From a virus (taxonomy: Duplodnaviria > Caudoviricetes): a DNA stretch of 64,000 nucleotides. The position numbers and the translations under genes are program-made. The notes beneath the pieces were generated by a model. The model made no database searches. It was not told where the DNA came from and saw only the letters and a list, made by a program, of their open reading frames with translations. Position 1 is the stretch's first letter. Each line of letters opens with the position of its first letter. Positions 3,887-39,000 of this stretch are shown piece after piece. The stretch is taken from IMG/VR virus record IMGVR_UViG_3300005077_000001, positions 96,001 through 160,000 of that record. One strand, given 5' to 3'.

Positions 3887-3906
3887 TTGAATTGATGGTA
3901 TGCGAT

Positions 3907-3938: not shown

Positions 3939-3974
3939 CACTTCTCATAAAAAGTAAAGGAGGTCGGAAGGGCA

Positions 3975-12000: not shown

Positions 12001-15000
12001 TATATATCATGAGCAACAGCAGAATTTAGATTTTGATGGTGATATGATAGCTCTTCATGCTGCTACATTAAAGAATACTAATGATGAGTTGGAGAAAATT
12101 AATATAGAACAAACTCTCAGAACTGGGGATACAAGGAGATTCCTATATGAAGACTTCAGCAAAGTAATGGCAGAGAAATGGTCGCTAGGTAAAAAAGGAG
12201 ATAAACCGTCTGATGAGGAGTTAGCTGTATTTAAGAATTTTGCTCCGTCTTTATCCTCCCAATGGAATTCTATGGACGTAACTCAGCAATTTACCGATAA
12301 AGCTAAAAAGGACTTATTAAAATTTCATGGTACGGATGCTCCTACTGTGGCAGAAGATGCTTTGAAACACTTTGTTCATAAGATTGATATGGGCCAAGTT
12401 TACGAACAATTTAATAGGATTGGTTTATCTTATCGTGGATTAAGTGCAGAGGAAGCTGGACTTACTCCTAAAATGAGTGAAAATTATAATCTCCTATTAG
12501 CGGAATTTTTACGCTATGTAGTACAAAAGGCTATTGGAGGTAAACATGGATCAGAAGGAGCAGATTTAGCTCCTATGGTTCAAAAAGCGTTTTTCACAGG
12601 GAATTTGGATTTTCTGGCCGGTAAAGGAAAGAATGCTCTATTTGGAGAACAAGAAGAAGCCCTTACAAAGTATAGAATGAAGTATTTGAAACCGTTGTCA
12701 CTTGCTGAATTACAAAAAGAAGCAGAATCTTATGGTATTGATCCAGGAGTAAAAAATAGAGAGCAATTAATAAAAGAGATTGTTAAAAAAACATCTTTTA
12801 GATCTATGTTTGAGAACGTATTTGATACTATCAAAAGACTTACTTTAGCAAATATACGAGAATTATATGAAAAAGGAGCTATTGGAGACATATCATTATC
12901 TAAAAAAGGTAGATTAGGGACAGCAAAGTATCTGAGTGGCCAGTATAATAAATCTATAGATGAGCTATATGATACTTTGAAAGTTTCGTTTAAAGATGGT
13001 AACTTAAATATTACAATGGGTAATAAAGATATTACCCAAGATGTTATAAACCGTGTATCAAAGGATATTGGGGTAGAGTTATCACCAAAAGAGGCTGCTT
13101 TCAGATTAGCTGCTCATGGGGAAGGGTTATACAGCGCAATTGTAGGAGAACCTGGGAAAACGCAAAAACGTATATTAGATTACGGTCCTTCAACTTCCCA
13201 ACTATCAAAAGGATTACAGCCACTTTATGTTTTGAAAAGTTCTGGTGGTGCAGACTTAGCCACAAATAGATATCTAAAATATAAACCAGGGTTTACATCT
13301 GAATATATGCCTGGAGGTCCAGAAGCTGGATATGCTGAAATAGTAGATTCTATTTTAAGAAACAGAATGGGAGCAAATATCCCAATCGACGATGCGTTGG
13401 GTACTTTCAGCAAAATAGGAGGCTCCAAAAACTTTGTAAGTCCAGTTATTAAGATATATGATGAATTTAAAGATACCTATGATAAATTAATGTCAGTAAT
13501 GACAGATGATATCTATAAAATTGAAGGGTTAACAAAACAAACTAAATCTTTTAATAGAGAAATGGATGGATTTGCAGGTAATATGGCAAAAGCGGGGGTT
13601 AAAGCATTTTATAATAAAGAAGAGAACCAATTGTATTTATCTAGTCAAATTAAATCTGATTTTGATGAATCTCTCAATAAATATGCATTAGGTAAAACAG
13701 ATAAAGAAAAAGCCGAAGCCAGGGAATCATTAAGTAAGGCTGCACAAGAAATAAAAGAAGTTCTATCTTATGCTGCAGCACATAAATACATACAAGCAAG
13801 TAATTCAGATTTAGCTAATAGTATACGTGCTAACATAACTAAATATGCTGATCCAAAATCTAATCAATCACTGAAAGTGGATACTCTTATTGAACGATTG
13901 GTTTCTTTACATCAATATACTCCTATTATTGTTAAATGGTTAGAATTAATTGGTAAACCAGAATTAGTATCTCAACCAAAAATAACTATAGCTAGAGAAT
14001 TATCTAAGCATCCACAAATAAGAAAAGAAGCTTTAGAAGAAGAAGTAGCTTCCCTGTTAAGTGGAAGTGGAGGTTTTTCCACCGGTATATATCCGTTATT
14101 TAAATACAGAAAGAAGATAAACCCATTCAACGAGCTGCTATTTGGTTTAGCTAGTAAGCAGCCTGTTCAAATGCAAGCATTTTACCCATTGACCTCAGAA
14201 TCTTGGTCAAATAAAATGTCTGATATGCAATACAATCTTAATTCTGGAGAATGGTATGATATTTTTAAGGGTCACCCTTCTTTACGTGATATAGAATTAC
14301 CTTCTGGTATGACTTCTTACAAAGATGTGTTTTCTTTTTTACGGTCAATGAAAAAATACGGGGGATCAAAAGGAGCAACTCATTATTTAAATAGCATCAT
14401 AAAAGATCGTAACAGATCTTTATTAGAGAATATGGGAATTGGCATACCTGAAGATTGGGATAAAATGAGGCTATGGGCAACAGAACCTTTGGTACAAGGT
14501 GGAATAAGCGAGGCAGCTACTACTACTAGCTGGCCTTTTTTACCATACCCTAGTAATATAAAATTACCCATAGATACTCCCACTGGAAGAGCACGTCGCA
14601 GTATTGAATCCATATATAGTAAAGCATTTGATTTATCTAGAAAAGATTGGACAAATGTATTCAAAGATTTTGATAAACCACTAGCAGATGAAATTCAATC
14701 TTTACCAAAGGATACAAATGTGATAGAACATTTACAAGATACAGGGATGTATGGGCAAAATAAAGGATACACCAGATATATAAATATGATTTTCAAACGA
14801 AGAATGGAGCAGTTACTAAAATCATTAGGCGAAGAGGTTCCTGAATTTTATGACATGCGTTTTCAAAAAGCAAAACAAGAATTTTTAAAAGTATTGGAAA
14901 ATAGAGCAAAACAAGGGAAAGGTTTTGGTTGGTTATGGGGCCCATCCACTGGAGGAACTTGGGGCGGTGATAAGTTTGGCCCTGAAGAAGCATATGGGGA

Positions 15001-18000
15001 TAATCCTCCAGCAAACATAATTAAACGTTGGCAAATGCAGTCTTTTTCTCCTGCCGATTATCCTCACATTAAACCGATATTTGATTATCCTAAATTTTTA
15101 GAGACTGATGCTGCTCTTCAATATAAGAGTCATGGACATCAGATTAAGCTTAGTGCAGTTCCATTAAGATGGGGTAATATTGAGATTGGATATGGAACTA
15201 AAAATAAACCCTTAGACCCAGATAAAGCAAATGCCATTTATAAACCTTTCATTGAACAAGTTAATGAAGAATTAGTTCCTAAGCTAAAAGATAAGGTGAA
15301 AGAAATTCATCATAGGATTGATTTATTTGGAGAATGGGGCGGTAAAAAAGATAAGCTTTTGTGGTTTGATGCAAAAATTGGAAATAAACCATTATCAGTT
15401 GATCAATTTAAAGAACTAGCTTCAAGTCTTGGTTTAAAAACTCCTGATGAATTATACCGTGGGAAAGTAACTAAGCAAATAGTAGAAGATGTATTCAGAG
15501 AAAAACCTCCATTCACAGAGTTAGAGGAAGGTGTAGTTGCTAAGGCATTAGAACGTAAAAAAGGTGATTGGTATGACATGGCAAAGTTTAAAACTAAACC
15601 ATATCTAGTGAATGAAGAAAACAGATATCCTTGGTTTGATGAGAAGTCAGCTGGTGAAAATATTGAAAGAAAAATGAAGAAAGTTTTAGATTACCAGTTA
15701 AAAGCTTTTTCCCCATTAAGAAAACCCAAGGGGACTCAATTAGAAGAGGGTATGTATCCTGAGGAATGGCCCACAATTGAAGTATCCAAAAAGAGAGCAG
15801 AACAGTATTTAAAAGGGTTAGATGATAAGTTTTATCGGCCGGCTGAAGAAGCCAGTATGTATAAAAAGGGTACTGAATTTTTAGTAAAAGCGGCTGGTTT
15901 ATCTGATATACCTTCCGTTGTAAAAGATGCTGTTGTTTTATCTCAAGAAGAATTAAAGAATAGTATCTTTGGTAAAGATATGCCAAAATTACCATATGAC
16001 CCTGTGTTGGTATTGAATACAAGAAAACAAAAACCATTATATCCTGAAGCAGTACCTATTTCTAAAGAAGCAGGTTTTATGTTTCCAGAGACTTCAGAAC
16101 CTGGACAAGTAGGTAGATTCGTGCTCCATAAGCATGACGCATTAAGGGCAGGACCTCATCATGATTTAAGATTTGAAGTAGGAGGTCAATTACAATCTTT
16201 TGCTATACCACAACTAGTTCCAACTGATAAAGGCAAAATAAGATTAGCAATTGGTCCAACTGCTCACCATTCATTAGATTACTATGAAAAAGGAGATTAC
16301 GAAATTCCAAAAGGTTTTTATGGTGCTGGACGTATGCGTACAATGGATGTTGGTACAGCTGTATTAGAAAGCTTTAAACCAGATCATATTACTGTAAAAT
16401 TAACCGGGGTAAGAGGTTTAGCTGATGGTACATATTCACTAGTAAAATTTGATCCGAAAGGAGAGAAACCTAAACAACAGCAATGGTTATTTCAAAAAAT
16501 AAGAGATATAGAAGAGAGGGACCCTGTTAGATTTGCAGAAATATATACTGATAAAGTAGAAAAAGAACAGGATAAAACTTTAAATAAATTAGGGGATAAA
16601 TACAGAGACTTTCTTTCTCCTTTGACAAAATATGAAGAAAAAACATATTCTAATTATCCCACACTAGAGTTAGATTCTTATTTCAATGCTCCTGGACAAA
16701 TGAGGGGAAGGTATTCAAAAGGGAAAATACGAACAGGAAAACCTAGAAATATGGAAGAAATGAGGGCTCTCTTAGCTACTTATGACCACGAGGTTGGTCA
16801 TGCAGCTATAGAGAAATCCTATCCTGATATCGCTGAAAATATCATGTCTGGAAAAGCTGTATTTCCTGGTGTTCATATGGATAAGATTAGAGGCTATTTT
16901 GCAGCTAAATATGGGGGCGATAGAGGAGAAGGAGAAGATCCAGCAATTAAAGCTCTAGAAGAAGCAATTGCAGGTACCAGAGAAGAAGATCAAGATATTT
17001 TAAATGAACTTAGCAAATTACGGGATGAATCTTTTGGTAAAGCTGGAATGGTACCAATAGATCCTAATGCCCTCCAAGAACTAAAATATATCAGACGTTC
17101 TTTTAGTCCCACACAAAAACAAGATTTTGCTATTACAGTAGATTTAAATGATGATAAAGGAGCCCTCTCCTCTTTGAGTTCTTCCTTACAATCATTGGTC
17201 AGGCGATCAATATCAAAAGCTTATGGGCCATATGAGTTGCATGTAGATGCAGCATCTAGAGGTAATCCTGGGCCAGCGGGAGCTGGTGGTATAATAACAA
17301 GTCCTCGCGGAGGGGTTGTAACATCTTTTAGTAAACCAATCGGTGATATGACTAACAGCATGGCTGAGTATGTAGGATTAATTTTAGGATTACAAGAAGC
17401 GTATCAAAAAGGTATTCGTAGTTTAGAAGTTATTTCTGATTCTCAATCAATGGTTAATCAACTTCTAGGTACATATAAAACTAGAAGTCAAAATATTATT
17501 CCATTAAAAGCTAGGGTAGATCAAATTTCAAGTAAGTTTGGTAATGTGGATTTCCAATGGAAACCAAGAACCTTTCTTTCGGATGCAGATAAATTAGCTA
17601 ATGAGACTTTGGATTCTGCTCACAACAAAATTAATCCTGATGATGCAGTAAAGAGAGTAAAGAATTTAATAGATACTAAACAAATAAAGACTAATGATAC
17701 TCTTTTTAAAACTGCTTATTCAAAAGATAAGTACATGGATTACTTATCAAAAGGTTTTGCTGTGGGTATGCTAGCTAATGATGATATATATATGCCTTCA
17801 GGTATAGTAGAAAAGTTTAAAAAAGATTATTCTAAAAACACTCCTGATTTACAATCAGTATCAGAAGCTATACTTCGTACCTATTCTCATGAACGAACTC
17901 ATAAAGATATAAACACTGCTCCTTCTAATATCTACCGTAAATACAAATCTTTAGCAATTGACCCTCGATATTCAAATGCAATTGAATCCTTCATACATGA

Positions 18001-21000
18001 GGTAATACAAGGACCATCTAAGGATATATACTTAAGACAATTTGAAAGGGCTCAGATAAAATCTGGAGAACGACCTGGAGATTACGTATCTTCACCCGCT
18101 GCACGATGGGAAGCATTACAGGAATTAATTGCAGGACATCCTGAAATGAAATCTGCATCTGCTTATAATAAGGATATATCTTTAATAAGGTCTTCCTTTT
18201 ATAGAGATTTGAGTAGAGAAAGCATACAGCATTATGCTCCTGGGCGTAAAGCAAAAGAAAAACCTGATTTCAAATCAAAAGATTATATTAAAATGGTGGG
18301 AGCTAGTGCTGGTGGTTATGAAGTTGGTAATATTCTGTCTAGTATGCTCTCTCTAGATGATATCAAAAACTTATATAGCTTAATGAATGAGCTTACTGGG
18401 TTGGACCCTCTTAGAGTGAAAGGATCAGATCCTGAAAAATCTAAGAGCTTAAGAGACAAAATAGAAAAATTAAGAAGTATGACTGGTTCTAGAGGAGCAA
18501 TGCCTGGTGAAGAACAAGCTGCAAAAGAACGAATAAGGGTATTAGAAGAAAGACTTAAGGAACTTGGTGGTAATGAAAATAGATTGGAAACCCTGCATGG
18601 AATTACGTCTACTGCATTGCCTTTTGCTGGGGCTGCGATTGGAGCTGGCGTACAATATGCTACTACTGGGCTATTTTCAGAAAAAGGCATACCAAGGTCT
18701 TCCTGGGCTAATTTGGCAGCGGCTGGTGTTGGAAGTGTAGTTGGAGCTGGTGGTTTACCTTTATTGTTAAATAAACTTCCATGGGCTGTTCCACATCTAC
18801 CGTGGCACCTTATAGGAGCTGGGGCTGGAGCTTTAGGAGGGTATGGGCTATTACAACTTTATAGAAAATTATCTAATAAGCCAACTAAGCAGTCTTATGT
18901 ACCAACAAGTATAGGTACACCTATTGAAGGTAAACTAGGTTGGTCTACCGATAGTGGGTTTTTCAAAGTAGGAGCAGAAGGTTCAATAGGGTTACCTCCT
19001 CTTTTAGGAATGTCAGGGGATGAATATTTAGAGAAAGATATAAATACATTATTCAATCCAGAGGTTAGACAATCCCGTTTTGTTGGATTACCTCAAAGAC
19101 TAGTGGATCGTATAGATCCAAGAATTTCTGGATTACTGAGGTCTAGCTTGTCTTCAGATCAACTATTTAATATAGGAGCGAATGTAGGTGTTGGTCCAAT
19201 TAGTTTAGGATTTGAGTCAAATTTAGGATCTTATAATTTAGGTTCCTTACCTTATGAGTCTCGGCTTAAGCCACGTATTTCTTTACGAGAAAAAAACTTA
19301 GATGAATTTTCTACAGATTATTTAAATAGAAAACCAGGAATACATCCTCATTATAAGCAGGGTATTTCTTCTGCCTTGGAAATGATGTCTCCAATGGGTA
19401 GTTCTGATTTTCTTGATATTATACTATCTGGTACGGATATGCTAGATGATCTTCTATTACGCATGCCAAAATTAAAAGGACCCAAAGTTAAGCAGACGAA
19501 TAGAATATTTAATTTGACAAGAGATATAACTCCTGAAACTCCTATCAAAGAGCAAGCTCTATCTTTAAAAGAAGTACATGATCAATTAAGAAAAGGGTGG
19601 GTAGCAATAAAAGAAGGAATCGACCAATTTCCTGGTTCAACTTTAACTACTCCTAGCTTTTCTGTTTCTTCTATAAAAGATTTCTTTTCTAACCAATGGA
19701 AAGGTTTAAAAAATGCTATAAACACATTTTCTTCTTTTACTCCTACTAAGAATTTAAGGAATGAAATAAATAGTTTAAGATCTGGTCCTATAGATAATAC
19801 TATATTACAAAAAATAATAGGATTAGAAGAAGAGGTTATAGGTCGTAGAATTGGGATTTTAAAATCTATATCTTCATACAATCCTCGTCGTAGGGCTGAA
19901 TTAGAAAATATTTTTAAGTATGCTAATACTTTTAAACCAGGTTATCAATTTGATGTACAAGGTCCGGGTGGATGGGAAAAAATATTCTTTGAAGAATATC
20001 TTAAACGTGGTGGAAAAGAAACTAGTGAAGTCCATGTTGCTGCGAGAGAATTAAATAAAATGGGAATAAATAATTCTCAACAGCTAAGGGCGTTACAAAA
20101 CATAGTAGGTCCTGGAAAAGCATATGAAACAATTGAGAGTGTTACTCCTATTCCGGTAGGCCAAAGAGTTGCTAATGATGCATTTTCCTTAATAAAAACT
20201 GTTCCTAGTTCTATCAAAAATGCTGGTACATTTATGATTGATGCCTTTAAAGATATAGGAAGCTTTATTTCTACTTTTGTTAAAGGTAAAGATGCATCAG
20301 GCCAAGTATTTAATAGGTCAGCCTATTTTAGTAATGTAATTTCTGAATTACAAGATACTCCTGAAAGATATAGCACAATAACTGGAACTTTATTAAAGAA
20401 TCCAAAAGCCGATACAGTATATTCGCCAAAGATAATGGGACATTTAGTTGAATTAGCCAAATCATCAGTCTATAGGCCGTTAAATGCTCTAGGTATGGGA
20501 CTTGGAAAATTTATTGAACTAGATTTGGATAATAACATCGAGCCTGGAGTTAAAGGTCTATGGAAAAACTATATTACAAATCAATCTGGTGCGGATATTA
20601 AATCAGGATTAAATAGGCTATTCGGTTGGAAAGGCGGAGTAGTAAACACTACTACTGAAAATCTAAGAAATATAAAAGATTCTACTATTGGAGCAGCAAA
20701 GGTTTTTAGTAAAGAATATGGTCCTTCAAGAACTTGGGATTTATTAAAGAGCTTTTATACGGTTCCAGCTTATGGTGTTGGGGAGGCTATGCAAGGTGTT
20801 GGAGGAGCAATAAAAAGCGGTAATATACTAGATATTGCTAAGACTGTTGGATATACTGGTTTTCAAGCATTACCGTTCTTGGGGCATGTAGTATCTGGAG
20901 GATTTGAATTAAGAGACCAATTGCGACAAGGCCATAGATTAATTCCTTCTATAATTGGTACAAGTGCGAAAGAGTCAATTACTTATGGTACTACCGGCCT

Positions 21001-24000
21001 TGGTATGACCGCTGGAGAAGCTGTGATGAGGGCGCTATCTAATAGTATGGGCCCACGTGGTAAAGCGTTGATGTCTGTAGTAGGCTTGATTGGAGGGGGC
21101 ATTGCAGGAGGAGCATTCGGTGGTCGTATTGGGGGGATAGCTGAGAATTTGGTATTCAAACTTTTTGGTGAAAAACCTGATGACCACCAAAAAATACAAT
21201 CTTGGAAAGATCGTAAGAAGCAACTAGAAGATGAAAAGAATTCTTTAGTAGCAGTTACTCCAGATCGAAGCTATGCTCCAGTTTCTTCATTAGAAAGACC
21301 TTGGATAACTCCAGCAGAAATAAGAGGGTCTATTGCTCCCAATTTAGTAGGAAAACCACTAGATGCTTACATTAAATCTTTTAAGCAACTACAAGCAGAA
21401 GCATCAGAAAATATCCGAACTTCAGACGTTAATAAGTCTCAAAAGGCTTTAATAAAAACTACCTCAGATTTTTATTTAAACCGAGTGATAGAATCAAGAA
21501 ATGAACTAGAAGCCGCTGAAAATAACCAGTCTCCTAAATACGTTGTAGATCAGATTAAAAAGCAGATAGATGAATACATGATTAAATACGTATCTAATGT
21601 TATTAGTGCTTCTATGACTGGGGAAATCCACCCACTATCTGACCCATATAGGGTTAAAAAAACTGGAGGATTTGTTGGCGTAGATGATGCAAAAGCTGTG
21701 GCTTTAGGTAGGTCTCCTTCATTTGAAAAAGTTGTTAACCCGGAAAATTTCTATGTATCCGGTATGAGCAATTTATCTAAAAACATTATAGGTTCTATGA
21801 GAGATTTATCAGTATCCAACATTAGTCCTAACTCTGTATACAAAGAATTGATTAATACATTATTTACTACTTCTACAGATATCCCTAAAGATCTTTCAAA
21901 TATACATGCCTATTTAAAGATGTATACCTCTGAATTAGGGAAGAACCCTAACATTGATGTAAACAGATTGAGATATTGGAAGTCCTTAGAGGAATTATTT
22001 AGAACACCAGCAAAATCTATTAGACAGTATGGTAGATTTGATTTTCAAGGATTTGGGAGTATTGAATCTAATGCTCCAGTTGAAGAATTATCTCCTACTC
22101 AAAATCGTGGATCTAAATTTTGGAGAGGAATGTCTATATTTGGGGGTGCTTTGGTTGGGGCTAATGCTCTTGGGATGAATCCATTTGTGGCTCCTGTAGG
22201 AATGGTAGCGGGCGGTATATTTGGAAATTACCTATACAATAGACATCTTGCTAAAAAACAAAAACAAGAAGAAGAAGTAGTGGATGTTCAATCTAATGCT
22301 CCAGTTTCTGATACGAGATCTTATTTGAAATTAATATTAGGAGAATTAGCAGGAGCTAGTATAGGTGGCGTTCTAGCTGCTTTAGCTTCTGGAGGTAATC
22401 CTTTATTTACCAGTTTAGGTGCTGGAGTAGGTTTGTACGCTGGTAATAAGCTTACCAAGAAATATGTAATTCCACAAGAAATGGATATTCAATCAGCGGC
22501 TCCTATAAATATGGGCGGATTGCCTATCGATATGCAGTTTAAGCAAAATCAATTAATGCTTGATTACTACAAAAAAATGATAGCATCTAGTTCTTCTATT
22601 AAAGAAGGTACTATAATACCTATTGATCTAAAAGTTAAAGATGAGGCAGGTCAAGTACTTAGTAATATACGAGCAGATTTAAAGAAAACCTCAAATAGCG
22701 CAGAGGGGGTTATTACTACTTTTACAGATTTAAATAAAGTATTAGCTCAGAAAAATACGCTATGGGGTGCAATAGAACTAACTAGCCAATATGTTGCTGC
22801 TGGTGCTGGAGTAGGAGCAGTAATTAAAGAGTTTACAAATATGATTTCTACTATCACCAGTGTAGACGCAGCAATGTATGGTTTAGCACGCCTAATGGAC
22901 CCTGCAATATCAAATTTTGATAAATTAAGATCAGTTGCATTTGAAATGTCTAAACAATATGGAACTAGTATTGTTGAAGTCATTGAATCTATGAAAGTAT
23001 ATGGTCAGCAAGGTCTAAAGCAAGCTGAAATTATTGATATGACACGAGCTTCTATAATGATGGCAAATGTATCAGAAATGAAAGCTACAGAAGTAACTGA
23101 ATTGATGACTTCTGCCACTAAACAATTTGGAGATCAAGTAAGATCTACTATGGCATTTGTTGATGCATGGGTTAAAGTTGACACTGAGCATGCTATTACT
23201 TCACAACAATTAGGACAAGCATTATTACGAGTTGGTGCGGCGGCTAAAACTGCTGGTATGTCTTTTCATGAATTAAACGGTGTTGTTACTGCTATCGGAT
23301 CTGTAACTAGACAAACAGGTAGAGAGATAGGTACTTCGTTAAGATTCATTTTACGTAATATAGAAACTTCTGCAGTTAAAAATAAATTAAGAGATCTATT
23401 TCAAATTGATACCCTGTTGCCAAGTGGTGCTATAAAACCCGCATTTGCTCTGTTAGGGGAATTACAACAAAAATGGGGCACTATAACAAACGCTGAACAA
23501 ATGAATCTTGCTCAAATGATTGCTGGTGCAAGACACTACAATGCTTTTACTGTTTTAATGAATAATTTTCAAGAAGCTTTAGAAGCTACATCAGATTCTT
23601 TAAATTCAAAAGGTGATGCAGAAAAAAGAAATTACATTTTAATGCAAAGCTTAGAGAAAAAAATGCAGCAACTTCGTGGAGCAGCTAGTGAATTATATAC
23701 TGAATTCGGTAAATTAGCATTAGGACCAATGAAGTTCATGGCTGATTCAACAAAAGCTTTGATTGAGGGTTTTACTAGTTTACCTGATTCAATAAAAACA
23801 TCAGTTATGGCAATAGGTGCATTCACTGTTTATGCATCAAAAATAGAGAGAATTACTAGTATACTTGGAGGTATTGGTGAGGCAAGTGGTCTTTCTGGTA
23901 TTGTGAATACTTTTGGCCAATTCTCTATCAGTCCTATTTCTAGCATAATATATTCTTTTGATTCATTAAAAGGTGTTAATTCCTTAAGCCAAGTTAATAC

Positions 24001-27000
24001 AACTTTAGGAAAAATGCTTTTCCTAATAAAATCAGTAGCAGATAGCTTTCTTCATGCAGGAGCTTCTGCTTTTAGCTTCGTGCATACTGCTGCTAGATTA
24101 ACTTCCCTTTTTAGTATTGGGGCTTTCATTAGTAGCGGGTTTAATCCTACAGCTTTACTTCCTCTTCTTGTAACTAGAGGACCTGTACTCGGTTGGGGTG
24201 CTAGAAGGATGTCTAATCTGATGAATCAAGGTACTGAGGGGATACTAGAAAAAGTCTCTTCTCCTACTGGGTTATTAGGCATTGGCTTAACTTATGTCTT
24301 AACTAGGTTAGCAGGTTTAAATACTGGTATGCTAAGTAGAGAAGGGATGGGTATTGGTGATACTATTAAACAACTATTCATTGGACCAGAAGCTGAATTA
24401 AATAGATACAAAGAGCAAACTGTTCAAATAGGGGGAGCTTCTACTCGCATATCTTATCTAAGTGATGTGCTTAAATCTTATACTGCTCTCAAAGGTCAAT
24501 ACAAGTCTTTATCTGAAATAGGTGTAAAGTTAGGGACTCCTGAAGGCATTACTTCTGAGGCCGAGCGAACATTATCATCTTTTGGGGAAGAAACTGGATT
24601 TAAACCATACATGGTTCGCTTATATGAGTTTAATAAACTACAAGAGGAAGCTAAGAGAAAAGCTGGTTCTTTGATTCCTTCTTTAGTATCTGGATTTGAT
24701 TTGTTTGGTAATTCTATACTTCAAGTTAATAAAAATTTCCGTACTAACATAGAATCTATGGATGAGCTACTAAAGAAAATACAAGACTTTGAAAAGATAC
24801 ACCTTGCCGGATTACAAATAGATAAACTATTCCCCGAAGCCAGCTTTGGACAAACATTTAGAAATACTTTAAAAGGACTAGTTGGAACTTTACCTTTTAT
24901 GGGAGAAACTTGGGCTGAGAAAATATTCCCCGCTACACCATACCAAAAACAGCAATCTATTTTGAAAGATATATCACGTTATCAGGGTATGCAGAATGCT
25001 GCATTAGCGACTGGATTACCTGTGCCTCCTTTTATCACTGATACTTTAAAAAATCTTAATAATAAGTTAAAAATGGTTAATTCAGAATTAGATTCGGAAT
25101 TAGCAAAGATTAAAGATACTATTGCTGATCTTAATGTGAAGACTCCTAAAGAGGTACTATCCGTATTATCAGATACTAAATTCGGGAAATATTTAGAAGT
25201 ATATGGTGGAAGAAATATGGATGTGCTTAATGCGGTGGCTGGATATAGAGGTATTTCTACACGGGATCTACAGAAGCAGCTAGTTCAGGATACTACAAAG
25301 TATGAATATATGCATATTGATAAACAGCCTGGTATTGCAAGTATCTTATCATTTCCTGCTTTCTACGGATTTTCTAGAATTCTATCTAAAGTTGTAGAGC
25401 ATTTTACTTCTCTTTCACTAGCTTCTTCTAATTTAGGAAAAGCTCTATTGCTTGCAACATCTGCAGCCGCAAGTTACCATTTTTTTGGAACACCTGAACA
25501 TTATTCATTAATGAAAAGTAGACCAACAGTTGAAGATACTTTAACTCCAGCAATTAATAATGTTAAAAATTTATTACCGTATATTACAGCTATTGGAACA
25601 TACAAAGCATTAGGAGCTATAGGCGGAGGTGGAGGAACAATACCTCAAAGGATTGTGGGAGGATTAGCGAGATTAGGGGTATCCTACTATATGTATGGGG
25701 TGGGAGGGAGATTAGCAGAAGGGATACCAAATCTACCTACAGAATCAGATAGAGTAAGAGGTATTAAAAATGAAATAGCGCAACGTCAGGCTTGGGAATT
25801 AGCAATGGGTAAATTAGGTATTGCTAAAGAAGCCATATATGGGCCTCCAGGTACTTTAGGGGCTATGCTGCCATTAAATGTTATTGCTGCTCAAAACCCA
25901 CTAGGCAGGTATGCTGTTCGTACAACTGCTCTGAATGAAGAAGATAGAAAATTAGCTGAAAAAAGAATGTTTTCTGGTCCTGGTTGGAATGGTGGAGCCT
26001 ACGGGGTAGGTGCCGGATGGGTAGGCAAAGTATTAGAAGAAGAACTAAATAAGCTGTCAGGAGTATCTGAGGGTGATGTTGTCATGATGGCAGAACTCAC
26101 TGATGTGGCTAAGAAGAGAGAGAATATTGTAAATAATTTACTACCACTAATTTATAGACGTAATAAAGCAGGTGAAGTAGTTCCTACCGTACAAGCTCAA
26201 AGGGAAGGTGAAATTCAAGCTTCAGAAATACAAATAAAACCAGAAGATTTAAAATTTCTATATTCACGTGGCCCAGGAGCAGCAGTTGATATGCGTACGG
26301 CATATGATCAGTTGAGGCGTACCTTAATTGGTGGTGCTGGTGCTGGGAAATACTGGACTCTAAGTGGAGCAGAGAAATTACAAATGGGGGTAGATTTTAT
26401 TTGGCAAGTACATGGATATGACAAGGCTATCACAAATCTATCAAAAACTTCATTAGTTATACATGAAATAGAAAAACAATTACAGGCTTTTTCTAAAGAA
26501 CAAATAGAAACAGCTCGGGCTCAAAACGATTTAAACAAAGTAATGGACGTAATTTTTGAGCATCGCAAATTGACATTCTTAGTTAGAATGAACCAAGAAT
26601 GGGAGAACTTAAAGAACACTATTGGTGAAATAGATTTTAAACGTCAAATGAGCGATGTTGATGAGTTTGCTACTATGCTAGAAAAAAGAGCTGCTATTGG
26701 ATTAAAAAGCATTTCGGCTGGCTTACCTCCTCAGGTTCCAATGGTAGCAAGTTGGAGTCAACTATCTCCAGAAGAACAAAAGTCTGTTCTAAGTCCAGAG
26801 TATACAGGCACAGCAAAATTAGCATGGGAAGTACAAAAATATCAAACTGATACAGCAGCAAAACTAAGAGCTACTCTAAGAACTGAACAAACAGGGGTTG
26901 CTTTATATGAGCAATTGAAAGAGGATTTAGGGCCTAATCTGAATGTGGCATTAAGTGGTAGAACTAGAAGAGCCCTCCAAAGTGATTTTGGTAGTAAAGT

Positions 27001-30000
27001 ATCTCCAGATAGAGTTTTTTCTGAGATACAGAGAAATCTATTAAGTGCTAATCTAACGGAACAGATGAAAGTAAATCAAGGTGCTTTCAATCTGAGTAAT
27101 CAAGAATTAGTAAATACGGTAGCAACTAATATGTCTCAAGTACGTGAGATTCAGAAGAGAGTTGCGGAAGGAGCTAAAGATCCTAAGATACTTGAAATGG
27201 AAGCAGATCTAAGAACAAGAAATGCTCAGATGTGGGTTAATGAACTAAAAAATAGACAATCAGTTTCACCAGAGGATTTTTCAGGGGTTAGTAAAGAATT
27301 ACTTGAAGGTTTTATTCATGAAATGGAAACTGAGGCAAAAAAACCGTTACCCTTTAGCTGGTGGAGATTATTGAACCCATGGGCATCGAATGAACCTGCA
27401 ATGCAAGCACAGAAAGCTAAGGATTTATTAGCAGCTAGACCAGAATCTACTTTTGATAAACCTATTGAAATGTTGGGGTCTATAGCTAGTTTATGGGTTG
27501 GAGAAAAAGTAGCTGGATTAATGTTTAAGCAAACTGGTCCGGCTGGGCTAGAGCAATTAGTTAAAAATATGGATAAAAGTAAGACGTGGGAGAGGGAAGT
27601 TATGCTAACTCAATCCCAATTTTTACGAGATATAGCAGAAAACACAGGTAAATTAGCAGGGACTCCTTCTCAGTCATATGGGCCTGGTACAGTACCAGGA
27701 CGTGGAAGCTACTCAGTTTTAAGCTCAGGATTGCAATTAGCTGGAGCTACAGCGGGTGGTTTTCTACTTTATTCTCTTGGTCAGCGTTTATCACAATCTA
27801 CCAGTACTGTTGGTAGTGCAATTGGGTCTTTAATCAATTTATTATTTAAAACAGCTAATGCAACAGGTACTTTTGGTAAGTGGTTAGGAAGACTTGGTCC
27901 TATTATGTCTGGTTTAGCGACTGCATACGTAGCACACCAATCTGGCATTGGTAAAGTGGATTCACTTATTGGAGGTGCATTAAATGCAGGTTCTGCTGCA
28001 TTAGGAGGTATAGGCTTAGGATTAATACACCCTGCTTTAGCAATTCCTGGTGGAGTGCTTGGTAGCATGGTAGGTAGTGGTTTATCAGATCTTTATTATC
28101 GTATTAGAGGGTATGATTTAAATGCAATAAAGGGAGTCGAAGGACAAGCAGCTTCTCCTGGACAGGAGTTAACTAATCCATATGCAAATATGCAAAGCAT
28201 ACAAGCCAATGTGCCTGATAGTATGTATAGTACTTTGGCGCGTATCGCTACTACAGGACTTGTTGCGGGGGCAGTTAAATCTAATGTTTTTGATGTGTAT
28301 TCTGAATATCGTAAACGTGGGATGGAAGAAGAAGTTGGAGCATTCCAATTAACTGCTGTTGCTCAACTGATTGGTCGCGATAAAAATGTGAATACTAAAT
28401 TCAAAGAATTTATAGAGAGTAAAGACTTAAAAAATAAAGATGAGCTATCCAATTTTATTAAACAAGCCGAAAAAGAAATGGGTCTTGGTAAAGAACCAGC
28501 AAATAGAGAAAATTTTCAAACTGATTTACAAAAATTTATTAATAATCTAGTGTCACAATTAAAAGAAACTCCTGAATTTCTTAATGAATTTGCTGAATCT
28601 ATCTCTTTTACAATGGCTAAGATGAATGAGTTTGCTGAGGGACTTAGATCAGTATCAACTACTTTAGGTGGATTACATGCTATTTCTAGAACAGTTCCTT
28701 ATGAGTTGGAAGCTAATGCTCCTAGATTTGGTTTCTTAGCCGGTCGTGGTGGTCCTGAGATATCCAGAGAGAAAGAGTTATGGCAATTATCTCCTACCGA
28801 TCTTTTTAAGTTAAGAGATACACAAGGTTTATATACTAAATATGTAACAGTACAAAAACAATTATCTGAATCTGGTAATTCTTGGGTAAAAGCAGTAGAG
28901 GATTATAATAAACAACAACGGGATATGGCTGCTCCTATTTTAGGAATTAGATATGAACTAAATAAAACAAAAAGGAATGTAGATCCAAAATATAGAGAAT
29001 TCATAGATGATTTAGCTAAATTCGTTGAAAATCCAGATCGTAATAGAGCTGAAACCATAGATTTTAGAAAAAGAGCAGTTGAATTAGAAGAGGCCGGGAT
29101 CAAAATAAAAAGATATAATTTAACTTGGAATAAAATTATGGAGGGGCAATCTCCTCGTAAACAGTTTGAAGCTTATTTTTCTGAGGAATCAGCTAACACA
29201 AGAATAAAACAACTACAAGTAGAATCTGGTACAGCTTCTAATCCAGAACAAGCAAAAGAATATGCTGCAGCAGCTGAAAGATTACGTGCTGAAGTTGAAA
29301 CTAAAAAGAAAGAAGAAGGGCAAAGTCCGCTTAGTTTATTCAGAGATGTGATGGTTAATTTAGAAAAAGAAGGAGGATTACTCAATACAATAAAGAATGC
29401 TAAAGAGCAAACTCTTCAAATCACAAAAGCATATATAGATTTAAATACGCAAATAGATTCAGAAATATTAAAAACAGAGCATTTAAATAAACTATATACT
29501 ACTAGATATGAACTTTTACAATCTATAATTTCATTGAGGCCTGGGGGATCTATAATTGAAGAAATTAAACGGCAAGGGCCTCTATTTGGACCATTGGCAG
29601 GTACAACTCCTTGGTCACAAAATGTTATTCCAGAGAATCTTGGAAAACCTTTTTCTTATGAAAACTACATGTCAGTTCTTTATCCACAACTCTCTGAGGA
29701 AATGACTTCCATACAAAGAAGAAAAGACGCTATATCAAAAGCAATGCAAACAGCTGCTCAGGAATCAGAAAAAGCTCAAACTGGAGAAACATTTTATAGG
29801 GAAGCTTTATCCGCTGTTACTACTGGTAAAGGACCTATGGATATATTGCAATTACAACCTAAAGGTGCAATGCTGAAACAGGCCATTTTTGAAGATACTA
29901 AACGAATGCGGGAAGAGCTTAAAGAGTCTAAAGAAACTAAAAAAGACTATGAGAAACAAATGGCTGATCTTAAGATACCTGCTGGATTCAAAGAGAGTGA

Positions 30001-33000
30001 TAGTTATAAAACATATATGACAACCAAAAAGAATATTGCAGATGTAGAATCCCTAATGCCGCTTATAGAGGATGTTAAGAAAACTGGTGCTGACTCATCT
30101 TTACGCTTAAAGGAAACTTTAGTTAAGACTTCCCCAGAAGCAAAGAAGTTAATTGAATCTAACCAACTATGGGATATGACTCCTGAACAGGCACTAAATC
30201 ACTTAAAGAAAAAATTACAGATAAATCAAAAAGAGTTAGCTAAACAGCAATATCAAGGTCAGCCAGTGTCTGATATAGGGGAAAAATTAGATAAATATGA
30301 AAAATTAGCGGGATACAAAAATATCAGGCAGGCTAGGATAGAGCAATTAGAGGAAGACATCAGCAAAAAGCAAGAAGAAGTGGATATTGTTAATTTACTT
30401 AGTAGCTCTGATTTATCTAAGATAGACCAAGGTGTAATAGACTACATAAATGCTAAAATTAAAACATATGCTGACCAAGCAGAACGTGCAAGTAAAGATG
30501 AAACCATGTTTCATGCAGATGGGAATAATTTAATTAAAGAATCAATGTCTAAAGTGATGCAAGTTCTAGGTAAATCAATAAAAGCTAGATTATTTGCTCT
30601 ATCAGATCAACTTAATTATGAATTTGATAAAATAAAATTTACTCCTGCTTTAGAATTAGGGGCGATGAGATCTCCTCTTACGGGAATAACTGCAGGTCTT
30701 CCCCTGATAAATCAACCAGATATTGGTAGAACCTGGAGAGAAGCTTCTTCTGCAGAAAGAGTTCTTTATTCTAATCCTGGTTTGTCAATGGCTAGACAAG
30801 AATTAGAAAGAATGACTCAAGCAAATATTTCACGAGTAGAGGGGTATATGAGAGATAGATCTGAGGCACAAGCTCAAAATGAGCGTATTAAAGAGCAGGT
30901 CGAGACTTTTAGTAAATCTGGAAGATTAACTCCTCAAGCAGAAGAAATGTATAAAGCAAGTATAGAAAAAAATAACGAATATATTAAAGAATTAAATAAA
31001 AAAATAGAAGATTTAACGGAATCTATTGATAAAAGTAGGAATAGTGAAATAGCTTCAGACTATAGAAGAAGTATGTGGATTGATGCTATACGAAAGCAAT
31101 TAGAAGACTTGGGAGTTAGATTTAAGGAATCCATTATTAATTTTGGGTCTGACTTGAAGAGTGCAATAAGAAAGTCTCCCGTTATGGGGCCAATGGCAGG
31201 AGTAGCTTATATTGGAGAACCTCCAAAGTCTCCTAGTATATGGGAATTATCTGCTGGCCAATTAACATCAATACAGTATCCTGGTATATACCAGCAGGGT
31301 ATGGCAGCACAAAGACAAAAAGAAGCAATAGATGTTTATATGAAAGGTATAGAAACAGCTATTTCGCAAAGACAATCCGAGTTAGAAATGGCTAAAACTC
31401 CTCAAGATGTAGAAAAAGCAAAAACAGAATTAAAAGAACTCATGGCAAAATACGATGAGGTGGAAGCAAAGTATGGTTCTCAAATTGATAGCCTAAATTC
31501 AACGATAGCAGAATTAGAGAGGTTTAATATTGCTTCAGAAGGAACTAAAACAGCATTAGAAGCAATGTACACTTATCTAAGAGCTATCGCTGATATTAAA
31601 GCGAGACGGGATTTGGGATATCTTACCTCTCCGTTCTCTGGAGCGATGAGAGGAGTCCCTGAGGCAAATTTTGAAATTGGGAAGAATGAATGGGAATTAA
31701 CAGGTAGAGAGGTTGTAGCAAAATATTCTCCTAATTTAGCCCAAGGAACAGCTGATTGGCAATCCTCTTATAAAGCTTTGGCACAAGAAGCAACGAAAGT
31801 GGGATCTGCTAGGAATTTAGCACTTCTTGAAGCTCGTTTTTCTGGAGATCCTAAAAAGCAAGAAGCTTATTTAGCAAAAGCTACGTCATTAGATGCGGCA
31901 TACCAGAAAATGACTAAAAGCCTAGAAGAGCAAAGACCTAAGATAGAGGCTCTAAGTGAAAGATTAAAAGGTCTTTCAGCGGCTGGAGAAGTAGCCACAA
32001 AATTTGAACAACTAGCTCGTCAATTGTATGTGTTAAAAGAGACAAATTGGGGATTAGACTATATTTCTTATCAAGTAGGAATGGGTAAATTTCCTGGTTC
32101 ACTAGAACGAGCTAGAATGGATGAATCAACAGGTATGCTTCTACCTGGGTTAGGTACTCCAGGTATGAATTATACCCCAATAATGGAATCTAGAGCATCT
32201 GGCTATGACGAGTTTGGAAATGTGAAATACGAAGACGTACCTCAACCAATGCAGCCGGGAAGCAGGTTATGGCAAGAAGCTATTTTACATCCTGGGAAAG
32301 CATCCTACTATAATTGGCTTGCTAAGGAAGAACAAACTAAAGCATTACAAGATAGAGAAGATCAGAAATTAGAGCAACAAAAAGGTATAGCAAAGCAAGC
32401 TCAGACATCCATTGTAGAAGCTCTTTATGAGCCATCTCTTCCTGAAGGATTTAGAGAAGTACTAAATAAACAGAGATCTAAATTAGAAGAAGATTTGAGA
32501 AGAGCAAGTGAAATAGAAGAAGTTGGGCCTGATAATATTTTGAAAAGGAGAGGCTTTAAATCTTTAAATGATCTTAAGGGTTTATCAGATGCCATAAAAA
32601 ATGCACTTAAAGCCGAAGATAGAAAATTAGAAGCTACTTATATATGGATGCCTATAGTAGATGCTATTAGAGATTTACATGGTGCACTAACAGGTGAAAG
32701 ACCTGAAGGAAGCAAAGAAGAACAAAGAATGCGCGCATTCTACAATAATCCAGAACAATATTATTATTCAAAAGCAGCACAACTAAGCCAGCATTATATG
32801 GGACAAGAAGGTACAAGTGTAATAGAAAATACTAATTTAACTAATACTTTATCCTCTATAGAAAGTAAACCTTACAGTATACCTGTTGGTCAATATGCGG
32901 GTTATCAAAGCAAGTTAGGTTCAAGAGATACTAATGAGATATTAAAATCTATATTAGAGGTGTTAATAGGGTGTTGCAGAGAAGGTAAAGTTGGTTCTGG

Positions 33001-36000
33001 GAGATCATCAGGAACATCTGATACAGGAAAAGAAAGATCGCCTATAAGCCAAGATTCAGGCAGCGCATCTGGGAGTGCAGGTGTACAAACTTTTGACTAT
33101 GGTACTCCAGATTATCAAAAACTAGTTCCAGTAGGAAATACTGCCTATTCTGTTGGCTCATCCACCACTAAATCTTCTACTTCTGCCGGTTCTGGATCAG
33201 TTCAGTCTTGGGTAAAAAGTGATGGTACAGTTGTGGGAGTACCAAAAACCCAAGTAGATGCAATGTCCTATTTGAAACATAGAGGCTATCCTGATGAGAA
33301 ATTAGATGACATTGCTGAAAGATATAAACGTCCTTTACCTATAGGAGATTATTCTACCGATAGTGTTATGATGGCGGCATCTAGAGCTTATGCTAGTACT
33401 GGAAAGTACTTTAGGCCTAGTGAAGCCTATAATAGTGATTTTGATTGGAGAGTTAGACAAGAAGGTAGTCTTCTTGATATTGGAATATCTAGACTTAGCG
33501 ATAATAGGTTCCTATATTCTGATATTAAAGCTCAGATGGAATCTGGTAAAGGAGCTGGTTGGCTTGATTCAGAATCTAGATTAGCTCTAATATTAGCGCA
33601 TGCTCCTTCTCTTAACATAGGGGGCAGACAGACTGTAATAGGGGAGTCTAATCCTTTAAGTATGGCGTTTGTTAATCTCTCTAAAGCACGTATGGATCAA
33701 ACTGTTGCCCATGAATTATTTGGACATGGTATGGAGACTTTAGGTGCAGCTGAATTACGTGGGGAACAAGGTATTTCAATTGGGGCGACACCACGAGTTG
33801 AGTATCTATCGAAAGTATTAGAATTGATAAAATCTCAAGTAGGTGAAGCTCCATTTAGAACAATTACTAATCAACTAATTAAAGATCCTCAGTTATATCC
33901 TGATTTATTCAAAGGGCAAGGTAAAGAAATAGAAGATGCCTATGCTGCTTATGTGAATAGATATCCTCGTGGGAATGTTCCTACTTTAGAACTTCTAAAG
34001 ATGCAAGAGAAAGCAAATAAACTCCCTCTAGACTTATCTCCTAATTCTTCTAATTGGTCTCGTTTGACCGAATATATGGCAATGTTTGCTGAAGGAGAAA
34101 ATACTCCTTATGGAATACCTACTGAAACTTGGCTTCGTGTGGTACGTAATGTTTCGCCTAGACATTTCGAAGGAGTAGATAAGTTCCTATCTTCTAGATT
34201 TGCTAATGATAATCTATCTGATTCTGAATTAATGAAAGAATATAGAATTGCAATTAATAAAATTAAATCAGAAGTTTATACCCCTGCTCATTTAGTAGAA
34301 CAAAAAGAAGTCACACAACCAGTTGTTAGCCCAATTGATAAAACGTTAGCTTCAATTGGAAGAATTCCAGATTTAAATTGGAAAGTATTTTCTGATGAAT
34401 TTAAAGAACGAAATAAGATAGGAATGGGTGACAAACTAACCAAACTATTTAATAATGTAGGCGATAGTATTAAAAAAGTTGTGTTAGGAGATGATACAAA
34501 AGTAGCTTTACAGAAATTTCAAGGTGTTGTAGGAGCAGTAGAAGTTGAAGAAAATAAGTTTACAAACGATTTATCAAAAGCTTTAGAATTAAGATCTAAC
34601 GTTATTTCTCAAGTCCAAGAAAGTATAGGCTTAATAAAAAGCAAACGAACACCCTTAGTTAGTAGTCCCCTCATTAGAAAAGATTTGATTGGAGCAGGTC
34701 CAACTGGTGTTGAGTTACTAGAAAATGAAAGACAAACTGGAGAGTTAGTTTCCAACATTATAGCAAGCAATCTTTCTAAAGCCTATCAACTTCCTTTTAC
34801 GGATAGGACTAGAAAGCTATTATCTAATGAACAAATTGATATGGGGTATAAAAAAGATTTACTCAATCTTACTCCTACGCTACCTATGATAGAGGAAAAT
34901 CAAAAAGACGAATATAAAAATAAATTGTTTATTCCTATAATGAAATCTCCATACTCTGAATTAGCTAGAAAATTTTCCAATGAGGCACAAGCACACCCTG
35001 AAGTAACTTCAGAAGCCATACCATTAAGAAATGAAGTATTTTCTATCACAAAAGAAATGGCTGGTACTGGACCTACTGATGTTTCCTTGGATACAAATGA
35101 ACCTGTAGACTACACATCTCCAGCAGGAGTAATACCTTTTGTATCTACTCAAGGATATCAACGGACTTTACCATCCTCAAATCTTCCTTTTATGATGGGG
35201 CTATTTAGAGGAAGAACTAATGAGCCTTTTAAATTTGATGGAGGGTCATCTTTATTACCAGGTGTTGATAGACGTGTAATGTTACCAGAAATTAAGGATA
35301 AATATCCTTCAATGCTTAAAGCTTTTACTAATATGCAATCTCCTATATACCATTATAAGGGTATAGCTAAATGGAATGAAGGAAAACCATATATCAATAT
35401 ATATAATTCTGATAAGATATCGCTAGAAGAATTTTTAAAAAGGGCTAAACACGAGATAAACCATTTAGTATTATATAGATTATACACTTCTCTAAATAAA
35501 GAAGAAAGAGATTATTTAAAAACAGAATTGGAAACTACACCTTTCTCAAAAGATTTTCTTCCAGACATAGTTGATATGGTAATAAAAGGAGCTGGTGGAT
35601 TTAAAATAGGAAAAGAGTTATTAGCCATGTCCACTGAACGAGGATTAATGTCTGATAGTCCTATATTAAGAAGATTACAAGAAATCACATTATCGATTTA
35701 TAAAAAACATGAAGCAGAATTAAAAGATGTTCATAAGAAAACTATGTCTGGCTCTTCTTCTTTGTTTGATTTATCAACAGCAAAATATATATTAGAAGAT
35801 ATTAAATCAGATCCTTTAAAACAATCTTTGGGCGCAGGTGCCGAAGGTAAGATATATACAAGTCCTAAATACCAACATTTAGCTGTAAAGGAATATGCTC
35901 AACCAATATTTGGATATCAAGATTGGTTAGATCGTGGAAATGAAATAATGCAGAGATTGCACGGTACGTCTCTATTTCCAGAAACATCTTTAAATTATGA

Positions 36001-39000
36001 TGATAAAAAAGGCGTTTTTATAGAAATTATGGAACGGTTACATGGAGAAACTGTGCATAATTCTGTTGGTCAATCAGGTTTTAATAAGTATGAGGTACTA
36101 AAGGATTATAAACAAAAAATTTATGAAATGTTGAAACGTAAAGTATTTCCAGTAGATTCTCATCTTAATAATATATTTTTGGAAAGTTCATCTAAAAAAC
36201 AGAAATTTATAGACTTAGGATCTTTAGATTTAGGAGAAAATGTTGAATATATAAATGAAATTTTAAAAGACATAGGAGTTAATCAATATTCTAATTACTT
36301 AACTAATGATCACTCAGCTAAAATAGAGCAATCAAAAATAGCAATAGAAGCTTATGCTGGGCCTGTTGTTGATATTCAAAAAAAAATGACGGCTGGTAAT
36401 AAAAAGATTTTAAAAGAGATTTCGATTCCAAATTTGGAAAGATTAATTCCTCTTTTTAAGAATAAAACACTAAAAGACATGTTTCAAAATGCTTTAGATA
36501 CAGCTAAACAATATGCTGGGTCTCCTTCACTCTTAAAAGGTCCAAATGATTTTCCAACTTTCTTAAGCGGTCTACATCCAGGAATGGCCCCTGAACAAGC
36601 CATTGATGCAGCTATGGCGGCTAACAAACAATCTATTGAATACTTAGGTGGCCCAGAAAAAGCGGCGGGTTTCTTAGAAGGGTTTAAAACTCCATTATTA
36701 GAAGAAACACAAAAGAAAATAAGAGATATTATGAGAGGAGAATTTGGTGGTTCTTCCTCACTAACTAGTCATTTTATGAATAGTTTACGAAGGATGCCGC
36801 AGTCTTATGAGGCTGTTAAATCTCTTCATTCTGGGGTTAGAAACTTAGGTCTTCAAAACCAAGTTAATCTATTTGGTGGTGGAGTAAGAGATATTTTAAG
36901 AGGCGAAACACCAAATGATTATGATGTACAAGTTAGAAGCCAAGAAGCATTGGATCTATTAAGAAGTAAAATGCCTTGGGATCTTTATAAAGTCAATGAA
37001 GCTTTTGATGTTAAATCTTATATGCTTCCTACAAGGAGAGAGTTTTTATCTACATTAGTGAATGAGCTTATAAAGCATACTTTTTTAAGCAAAACAGTAG
37101 GAAGAGCACAAACAGCACATCAAGTAACACAAGATTTAAATACACTTTTAGGCAAAGATATTAAGAGAGAAGTTTTAGATAGATTTGGAGGTAGTTCTTC
37201 TTTATTTGATATGTCTCCTGATTTTAAAATAGATTTAAGTAAACCTATAATTGATATACCAAAGATTCCTAAGATACCTAGAATACCAAAAACAGGGTAC
37301 TATCCTAAAGGTAATTTAGATACCTATTATGATTCTATATTTGCAACTCCAGAAGAAAAACGAAGTATATCTTGGAATGAAAGATTCAATGTAGATTCAC
37401 TAGTTCAAGGACCATTTGAAAACCTATATGATGACATAATGCGTGATAAATATGCTCCTAGAACCCGTCCAAGTATAAATTTTAGAAATTTATTTAGTGC
37501 TCCTCAATTTAGAAATATATTTTCTAATTTAAAAGATAGTGGAAGTGTATTTTTTGGTGGTACTGGGAAAGCTCAAAGTACACAAGTGGAATTAAAAACA
37601 TCTAAAGATATAGAAAGATGGTTAAGACAATTCACTGAAGCTGAAGTAATGCAAGTTGCACAAGAAAGCCATAGATTAACTGGGGATTTAGCAGGTCGTC
37701 AAGCTCCTACACAAGAAACTGCAAGGGATTATATACTTAATATACTAAACGATATTGCTCAACGAGAAGGTGGTAAACTATTAGCTGGGACTGGAATAGC
37801 TAAGAAATTCTTACAAATTATTGCTCCTGATCTAACTCCTTCGTTATTTACTGGTCAAACTTCAGAAGGTAGTATCAGAAGAGGCCATAGCTTTGGAAGA
37901 CCTAGTGCCACTTTCGGAGGAGGTAGAGTTTCTATTACTGAAAGTGTTGCTGGAACAGGTGCGGAGAAACATGAATTTGGAGAAGCACTTTCTGATGTAG
38001 CTATCCAATTATTACATCAGCGTTTTGAAACCGGTACTACTTCAAAAGAGCAACTAGCTTATGAAGATTTAATGCCACTAATAGAGAAGTCTGCACCTAA
38101 AACTGCACAAGAAATAAAGGATCAAATGGAACGTAAACTGGCATATCCTACGGAAGGTGAAAAGTTTAGTGAAGTTTTAGCGGATATTATGGGGCAACAT
38201 CAAGAAAAGTTGGTAGGTAATCTAATATTAAAAAACAATATTACTCCTGAAGAATTCATGGATATACTAAAGCCTACTGGAAAAGAAAGTGGTTATGAGG
38301 AATTCATTACTAAAGAAGCTTGGCATAAAGTATTGCAAGAGCGTTATTATGAAACACCCAGAGGGGAGGGAGAAGGTGCTATGCCAGAACTCCCACGTGG
38401 GTATAAGTTAGAAAAAGGGGTTGGTAGATTAGGATATCGTACAGCAGGAGCGGCAGAAAGTTTACTCCATGTTCCAATGATTGGTAGCCCATTGTCTTTA
38501 GTAAGTGCTGCATCCAAACTAACAGAAGGAACTAGATTTAGTTCTCCTTTCCAAATAGCAGAAGAAGCAATGATGACTATGCGTGGTCCACTCGGTATGG
38601 CTGCTAGATTTCCTTTTGGTATGGCGGGTATCTTTGCTGGTTCTGCGTTAGGAAAAGGACAAGAACTAGGAGAGAAATTAAATATTAACCCTCTAACTGG
38701 CACTCTACTTGCTTCACCAGAAGAATTATTAAATTTTCAATTATTTAATCTTGGAAGCCAAGCTGAGTTCTTTGGAAAAACACCTTTATCTAAAATTGGA
38801 AAGCCTATTGGTCCTACTTGGATGCACGGATGGGGAGGAAATTTATCACCAGAATTACAGGTGAAAAGAGCAATAGCTGAAGCGGGAACACTTAGAGGAG
38901 GAGCAGCTTCCCTGCTTAAAACGGGTGGTAGCTTAGTAAAAGGTACTGTAGCAATGGAAGCTCTTAGTCCTGTTGGGGAATCTATTTTTGGTTATATTAA

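Follow-up and report, generated by a model that had tools for sequence, protein, structure and literature searches.

This work reports that two segments of a giant phage protein, S2 and S3, are, as judged from their sequences, members of one genuine family of related modules of about 150-200 amino acids (aa), and that S2 precedes and S3 follows an RNase H domain in each of five phage lineages. The protein is encoded by a tape-measure open reading frame (ORF) in the tail region of the 256-kb genome of an uncultured phage, a region covered by the window analysed here, namely the whole stretch of 64,000 nucleotides (nt) from position 96,001 to 160,000 of IMG/VR record IMGVR_UViG_3300005077_000001 (Duplodnaviria; Caudoviricetes). 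A first-pass annotation had described six dispersed zincin-like paralogues, active and dead, in this protein (S1 to S6, carrying YAAAH, HEVGH, HERTH, HELFGH, HEINH and HEFGE, respectively), and this study found the paralogy for S2 and S3. The new elements here are a module family restricted to this lineage and the constant placing of two of its members around RNase H, while the general theme of such domains in injected giant proteins has already been published.

S2 and S3 form one module family around RNase H

Collinear relatives cover the N-terminal two thirds of the giant protein, and together with this phage they make up the five lineages compared, namely this phage, P0001, P0021/L008, the 211-kb G001 and the 545-kb G002 (Table 1). 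At an overall identity of about 40%, the HEVGH of S2 is kept as HExGH in all five and is followed 58 residues on by AL[ED]E..AG; at a likewise overall identity of about 40%, the HERTH of S3 is kept as HE[KR]xH and is followed 78 residues on by RWEA[LM]QE[LI][IL]AGHPE. When the orthologue profiles of S2 and S3 were compared with each other by hhalign, 92 columns were aligned with both motifs in register (P 7e-4, before the calibration given below). In a MAFFT alignment of nine modules, which were taken from four of the five lineages (all save G002) and include a third copy found in P0001, the residues H, E, H, L, E and A are invariant, among them the Glu of the later helix. This third copy reads HEMSH ... 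LNELIAAH, and therefore the S2/S3 family duplicates within such proteins.

The order of S2 before and S3 after RNase H was found in this phage, P0001, P0021, G001 and G002 alike, and G002 carries in addition an insert of about 460 aa ahead of S3. The family hidden Markov model (HMM) matched the aligned members only, both among all the giant proteins and across the whole 256-kb genome. No further relatives appeared in metagenome scans with the S2 and S3 alignments or in a scan of prokaryote genomes, searches of PDB sequences with the S2, S3 and joint-family profiles returned noise only, and an ESM Atlas feature search with S2 returned nothing.

Table 1. Positions of the giant tape-measure ORF, its domains and motif sites in the window, and of the collinear relatives in their own contigs
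Feature	Position (nt)	Residues (aa)	Strand	Remarks
Giant tape-measure ORF	6050-42997	12,315 aa	+	Holds all six sites S1-S6
S1 YAAAH	13769-13783	2574-2578	+	Neither metal site nor family member
RNA ligase domain		3026-3180		Pfam and PHROGs
LigD 3'-phosphoesterase domain		3360-3465		Pfam and PHROGs
S2 module	16625-17077	about 3526-3676	+	HMM envelope; HEVGH (aa 3580) at 16787-16801
S2 candidate third ligand	16961-16963	Glu3638	+	In ALEEAIAG; conserved AL[ED]E..AG
RNase H domain	17234-17605	3729-3852	+	Pfam RVT_3 (1.4e-21) and RNase_H; PHROG 531
S3 module	17657-18244	about 3870-4065	+	HERTH (aa 3947) at 17888-17902
S3 candidate third ligand	18122-18124	Glu4025	+	In RWEALQELIAGHPE; motif conserved in five lineages
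Tape-measure core		about 5530-6010		PhageMin_Tail and tape-measure PHROGs
S4 HELFGH	33710-33727	9221-9226	+	HExxxH variant; lineage-specific singleton; LTEYMAMFAEG 118 aa on, at about 34064-34096
S5 HEINH	35450-35464	9801-9805	+	Lineage-specific singleton; GKELLAM about 55 aa on
S6 HEFGE	37970-37984	10641-10645	+	Second His missing
P0001		6,667-aa fragment		Collinear relative
P0021				Collinear relative; one open piece of a frameshifted copy, ENA contig
G001	contig 75017-115753 (L002-L006)	13,578-aa ORF		211-kb IMG/VR record
G002	around 287,500-322,000 (L010-L014)	14,712-aa open frame		545-kb record

Similarity to the N4 virion RNA polymerase

Zincin-like metallopeptidases (MPTases) are the commonest domain of polyvalent proteins, in which one to five of them are present and many are set between domains of other kinds, and an HEXXXH variant of them has been described; they show no specific tie to the classical peptidase clans, and their definition started from aa 2130-2448 of the virion RNA polymerase (vRNAP) of phage N4 (Iyer, Burroughs, Anand, de Souza and Aravind, 2017; PMC5512222). 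We compared the S2/S3 family with a profile of 11 members, comprising this N4 region and ten N4-like homologues. The hhalign comparison gave a score of 32.5 over 116 columns, with a P of 5.3e-4 that, like the other hhalign P-values, is about five times too low according to the controls; those controls, 63 alignments drawn from other parts of the three giant proteins concerned, reached 24.9 at most. The two profiles align in register, the HExxH falling on HE[LM][VI]H and the Glu helix on ALNEFMAW, with a similar spacing of about 80 residues. At the level of sequence profiles, a relationship between S2/S3 and the N4 domain thus has moderate support, short of proof.

The N4 region itself, with its HExxH-bearing C1 domain, matched no Pfam family, and therefore the lack of Pfam matches for S2 and S3 is uninformative. 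Comparisons of S1, S4, S5 and S6 as single sequences with the N4 profile are uninformative as well, since S2 and S3 taken alone likewise stay at noise level.

Predicted structures of S2 and S3

Both modules were modelled by AlphaFold2 with the nine-module alignment. The S3 model has a predicted local distance difference test score (pLDDT) of 87.1 and a predicted template modelling score (pTM) of 0.79. Its HExxH occupies residues 85-89 within a helix spanning residues 72-93, with a local pLDDT of about 95, and the conserved Glu163 lies in a helix at 154-166, with several helices between the two; the N-terminal part consists of a helix (2-13), short strands (17-19, 45-47 and 50-53) and an extra helix (55-66) before the HExxH helix. 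The S2 model is weaker (pLDDT 70.6), with short strands of low confidence, and places HExxH at residues 61-65 within a helix at 46-71 and Glu119 in a helix at 110-122. In carrying both motifs on helices, the two predicted models agree with the published MPTase core, which permits variable inserts between these helices; in that core an N-terminal helix and a three-stranded beta-sheet come ahead of the HExxH helix (PMC5512222). The placement of the motifs on helices is a prediction, and the structure searches described below did not confirm a zincin fold for either module.

Proposed role of S2 and S3 and competing explanations

In gluzincins, two His and one Glu hold the zinc, and the Glu of the HExxH motif acts as the general base. 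Each of the two modules has an HExxH helix followed, 58 residues on in S2 and 78 residues on in S3, by an L-x-E-x-x-A-G helix, an arrangement that would correspond to this layout. Based on these findings, we propose, with a confidence only just short of an even chance, that S2 and S3 are gluzincin-type MPTase modules of the kind found in polyvalent proteins, most likely cutting the polyprotein in cis. Here we infer zinc binding, a three-dimensional site with His-His-Glu geometry, and proteolysis. The modules would cut nearby linkers in cis, either during virion maturation or after ejection, and such cleavage would free RNase H and the neighbouring RNA-repair enzymes from the membrane-inserting tape core. 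An enzymatic role is favoured because both predicted catalytic Glu residues are strictly conserved, and a role tied to RNase H is favoured because the modules are fixed on both sides of that domain. We know of no demonstration of how, or whether, enzymes are released from giant injected phage proteins in the host. The roles that the first-pass annotation had suggested for all six segments, namely autoprocessing, cutting of host proteins and scaffolding, had already been predicted for such domains in polyvalent proteins (PMC5512222).

Several points weigh against this proposal as a whole. In addition to the calibration of its P-value, the similarity to N4 is driven largely by the two motifs, and four family alignments were tried in obtaining it. 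No peptidase family was listed for any of the six segments by Pfam, PHROGs or NCBIfam at E up to 10, and PF18818 MPTase-PolyVal, M90, Mx, SprT and other Pfam zincins stayed short of the gathering threshold when the six segments were run through hmmscan at E up to 10. Neither model gave a zincin match above noise in Foldseek searches of PDB and BFVD, in VIA-align over 48,161 representatives plus Foldseek's list, or in ESM Atlas; the weak BFVD rows (E 0.4-2) include 'Lethal factor', polyvalent-protein domains and MuF, and are a hint only. N4 vRNAP, which has been studied best among the relatives, is packaged without being cleaved (PMC5512222), and therefore autoprocessing is no safe default. Its C1 domain (residues 2124-2375) has been solved in structures such as PDB 9pnr, in a paper that mentions the conserved HExxH and reports no activity for it (PMC13434306).

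The failure of every structure search to return a zincin fold, the uncleaved state of N4 vRNAP and the silence on C1 activity also speak for the main rival explanation, wherein the helical modules S2 and S3 bind a metal or play a structural part only, have lost or never had the ability to cut peptide bonds, and serve either in packing or docking, like the N4 C-terminal domain, or in the regulation of RNase H. The HExxH-bearing C-terminal region of N4 vRNAP is needed for encapsidation (PMC5512222), and the conserved bracketing of RNase H would suit such a role as well. However, neither the general-base Glu in HExxH nor the distal Glu varies among the five lineages, whose identity is about 40%, a constancy that catalysis demands and of which a scaffold needs less, and we regard the non-cutting explanation as rather unlikely.

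A third explanation is that S2 and S3 are active zincin peptidases aimed after injection at host proteins, whether of defence or of housekeeping, and not at the polyprotein. It draws on the same evidence of identity as cleavage in cis, the neighbouring RNA ligase, phosphoesterase and RNase H domains resemble a payload that would work in the host cytoplasm, and host-directed cleavage is among the roles discussed for phage zincins (PMC7824862). However, the fixed position of the modules on the flanks of one domain in all five lineages suits a domain-tied role better, and nothing in the data gives a clue to a substrate, so that we hold this explanation improbable. Cleavage in cis is therefore placed first, a non-cleaving docking or regulatory role second and an attack on host proteins third.

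A more far-reaching form of the cis-cleavage proposal, which we put forward as a speculation and judge distinctly unlikely, is that S2, RNase H and S3 would constitute a self-excising cassette, wherein the paralogous zinc peptidases, each cleaving its own junction, free RNase H, perhaps together with the upstream RNA ligase and phosphoesterase, inside the host, while the hypervariable C-terminal 3,400 aa with their unrelated HExxH would be a second, rapidly swapped payload processed likewise. If this were true, a tail tape measure would be a protease-segmented delivery polyprotein. Protease-like modules paired around one enzyme, and conserved in phages of 211 kb to 545 kb, offer a small system, open to mutation, in which the long-standing prediction of autoprocessing could be tested; they add a clean handle for experiments rather than a principle not known before.

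The six motif sites and the hypervariable C-terminal region

All six strings were found where the first-pass annotation had placed them, in the frame of the one ORF. His makes up 1.1% of the giant protein, and HExxH occurs three times against 0.11 expected from composition, a count reached in 0.05% of 2,000 shuffles; the enrichment in HExxH therefore stands, and the single HExxxH (HELFGH) is additional to these three. The Glu stretch that had been reported after each site is also present, E-x-[ILMVF]-A being found downstream of all six. The tighter pattern [LIVMF]-x-E-x-[ILMVF]-A, which was set post hoc with the data already seen, occurs nine times in the whole protein, and five of the nine lie 56-118 aa after S1, S2, S3, S4 and S6.

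We consider the first-pass picture very improbable, wherein the six segments would all be paralogues derived from a zincin, four of them still active and two dead, lying to either side of the tape core. It gains from the presence of L/F-x-E-x-[VILM]-A after five of the six sites though only nine such stretches occur in 12,315 aa, from the existence of HExxxH variants among MPTases (PMC5512222), and from the resemblance of E-Y-M-A-M-F-A-E in S4 to the E-x-F-A-E helices of other giant tape measures. However, the supporting pattern was chosen after inspection of the data, and the six segments have no detectable similarity beyond that of S2 with S3: self-BLASTP found no internal repeats, all-vs-all BLASTP of the motif-centred segments at a low threshold recovered orthologous pairs only, and the S2/S3 family profile picked up S2 and S3 alone. 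The histidine of S1 is not conserved and S1 mismatches the family profile, S6 is without one ligand, and S4 to S6 are without homologues. The zincin-like character is supported for S2 and S3, with their invariant motifs in five lineages, their profile similarity to each other and to N4 and their predicted helices, and is unsupported for S1 and S6 as dead copies. The siting of the segments beside cargo enzymes holds on the N-terminal side of the tape core, where RNA ligase, LigD phosphoesterase and RNase H are found, and fails on the C-terminal side, since neither Pfam nor PHROGs found any enzyme in the C-terminal half of the giant ORF.

S1 was considered as a decayed copy and rejected, as two relatives carry RGAAL or RGASY at this place; the likeness of its EALEEEVAS to ALEEAIAG extends over 11 columns only, with an hhalign P of 0.16 against the family. 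A decayed zincin in S6 is unsupported, as one ligand is missing and no relatives were found.

About 3,400 C-terminal residues follow the conserved block (aa 8914-12315, about 32789-42997 of the window) and are wholly different in this phage, G001 and G002, so that, from the sequences, they have the appearance of a hypervariable payload or of a part that contacts the host. S4, S5 and S6, which lie in it, are absent from the matches of the S2/S3 family HMM, a comparison that has no power with single sequences. No homologues of S4 to S6 were found in IMG/VR, the protein database, GenBank phages, G001, G002 or a comparison of the three C-terminal regions; an exhaustive phmmer search of aa 9100-10299 against 1.84 billion representatives gave 0 matches, and no sequencing runs were listed as carrying S4-S6 DNA. 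The ESM Atlas feature search returned nothing for S5 and low-overlap leads only for S4, one of them with 18% LPD23.

In S4 and S5, which are plausible singletons, this phage may have additional copies of its own, unrelated in appearance. It is clearly possible, if somewhat short of an even chance, that their HExxxH and HExxH instead arose by accident, without forming a metal site, in a region that evolves fast and is specific to the lineage. Each motif is about 10% likely to occur once in a protein of such size and composition, and they stand in a region that has no homologue among the 1.84 billion representatives and differs completely among three related phages. On the other hand, both have the usual hydrophobic setting of a zincin helix (TVAHELFGHGM and RAKHEINHLVL) and a Glu stretch at a suitable distance, and several MPTases per polyvalent protein are common (PMC5512222).

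The giant protein and its relatives

The single ORFs of G001 and G002 both exceed the 12,315 aa of the protein studied here. On the 24-kb ENA contig L008, the relative of the giant gene was called as seven overlapping ORFs that change frames, and this fragmentation probably reflects assembly indels, not a truly split gene. P0001 carries extra modules at aa 3025-3874 and 4094-4921, namely an HEFGHYRLGH module, a PolyA_pol-type nucleotidyltransferase (PF01743) and the third S2/S3-family copy, and therefore cargo modules come and go between the conserved blocks. Giant tape measures of 7,000-7,800 aa form another, separate lineage (P0002-P0020), which has an RNA-polymerase-like region and the tape core in common with this protein.

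The 12,315-aa protein contains no cysteine, against a mean of 1.6% in the 20 other ORFs of the window (a chance of about 1e-88). Cysteine is likewise absent from P0001 and from 18 of the 19 other giant tape measures found; P0008 has two cysteines, and the 13,578-aa protein of G001 has eight. Glycine-rich hydrophobic segments resembling membrane-inserting glycine zippers lie at aa 4222, 5006, 5428 and 7323, and three of the four fall between S3 and the tape core. Just 3' of the tail genes, an ORF at 45704-46927 of the window carries RRXRR (1e-65) and HNH endonuclease domains.

Comparison with known systems

Several members of the separate tape-measure lineage (P0009, P0012, P0018 and P0020) resemble the protein studied here in being cysteine-poor giants with a module in which HExxH is followed by a Glu helix. 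Their modules, however, are C-terminal, read HExGH ... SPxExFAE and in Pfam weakly suggest Peptidase_Mx1, Peptidase_M90 and Peptidase_Mx (E 0.003-0.17). Compared with the S2/S3 family by hhalign, these modules aligned at the HExxH alone, over 11 columns.

The Thermus phage P23-45 gp96 is likewise a giant tape measure with an RNA polymerase and a metallopeptidase domain, the latter having been called characteristic of many tape measures (PMC10770324). It differs in its length of 5,002 aa and in being without the RNase H bracket, and it is likened to S2/S3 by description only.

The C1 domain of N4 vRNAP is the best profile match of the S2/S3 family, and both stand within an injected giant protein that also bears an RNA polymerase. 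The likeness is one of profiles, N4 chains not being listed by the fold searches with the S2 and S3 models. Whereas S2 and S3 are paired around RNase H in a tape measure, C1 occurs once, where a large C-terminal domain begins, and belongs to a podovirus protein that is packed in the capsid and uncleaved.

With the MPTases of polyvalent proteins, S2 and S3 share the HExxH helix and the later Glu helix, the variable helical inserts and the scattered siting between enzyme domains of other kinds, in a giant protein codelivered with DNA. They differ in that the S2/S3 family has no Pfam match at E up to 10 and is found only in this phage lineage, and in that the carrier here is the tail tape-measure protein of a 256-kb phage, in which two copies are fixed around RNase H.

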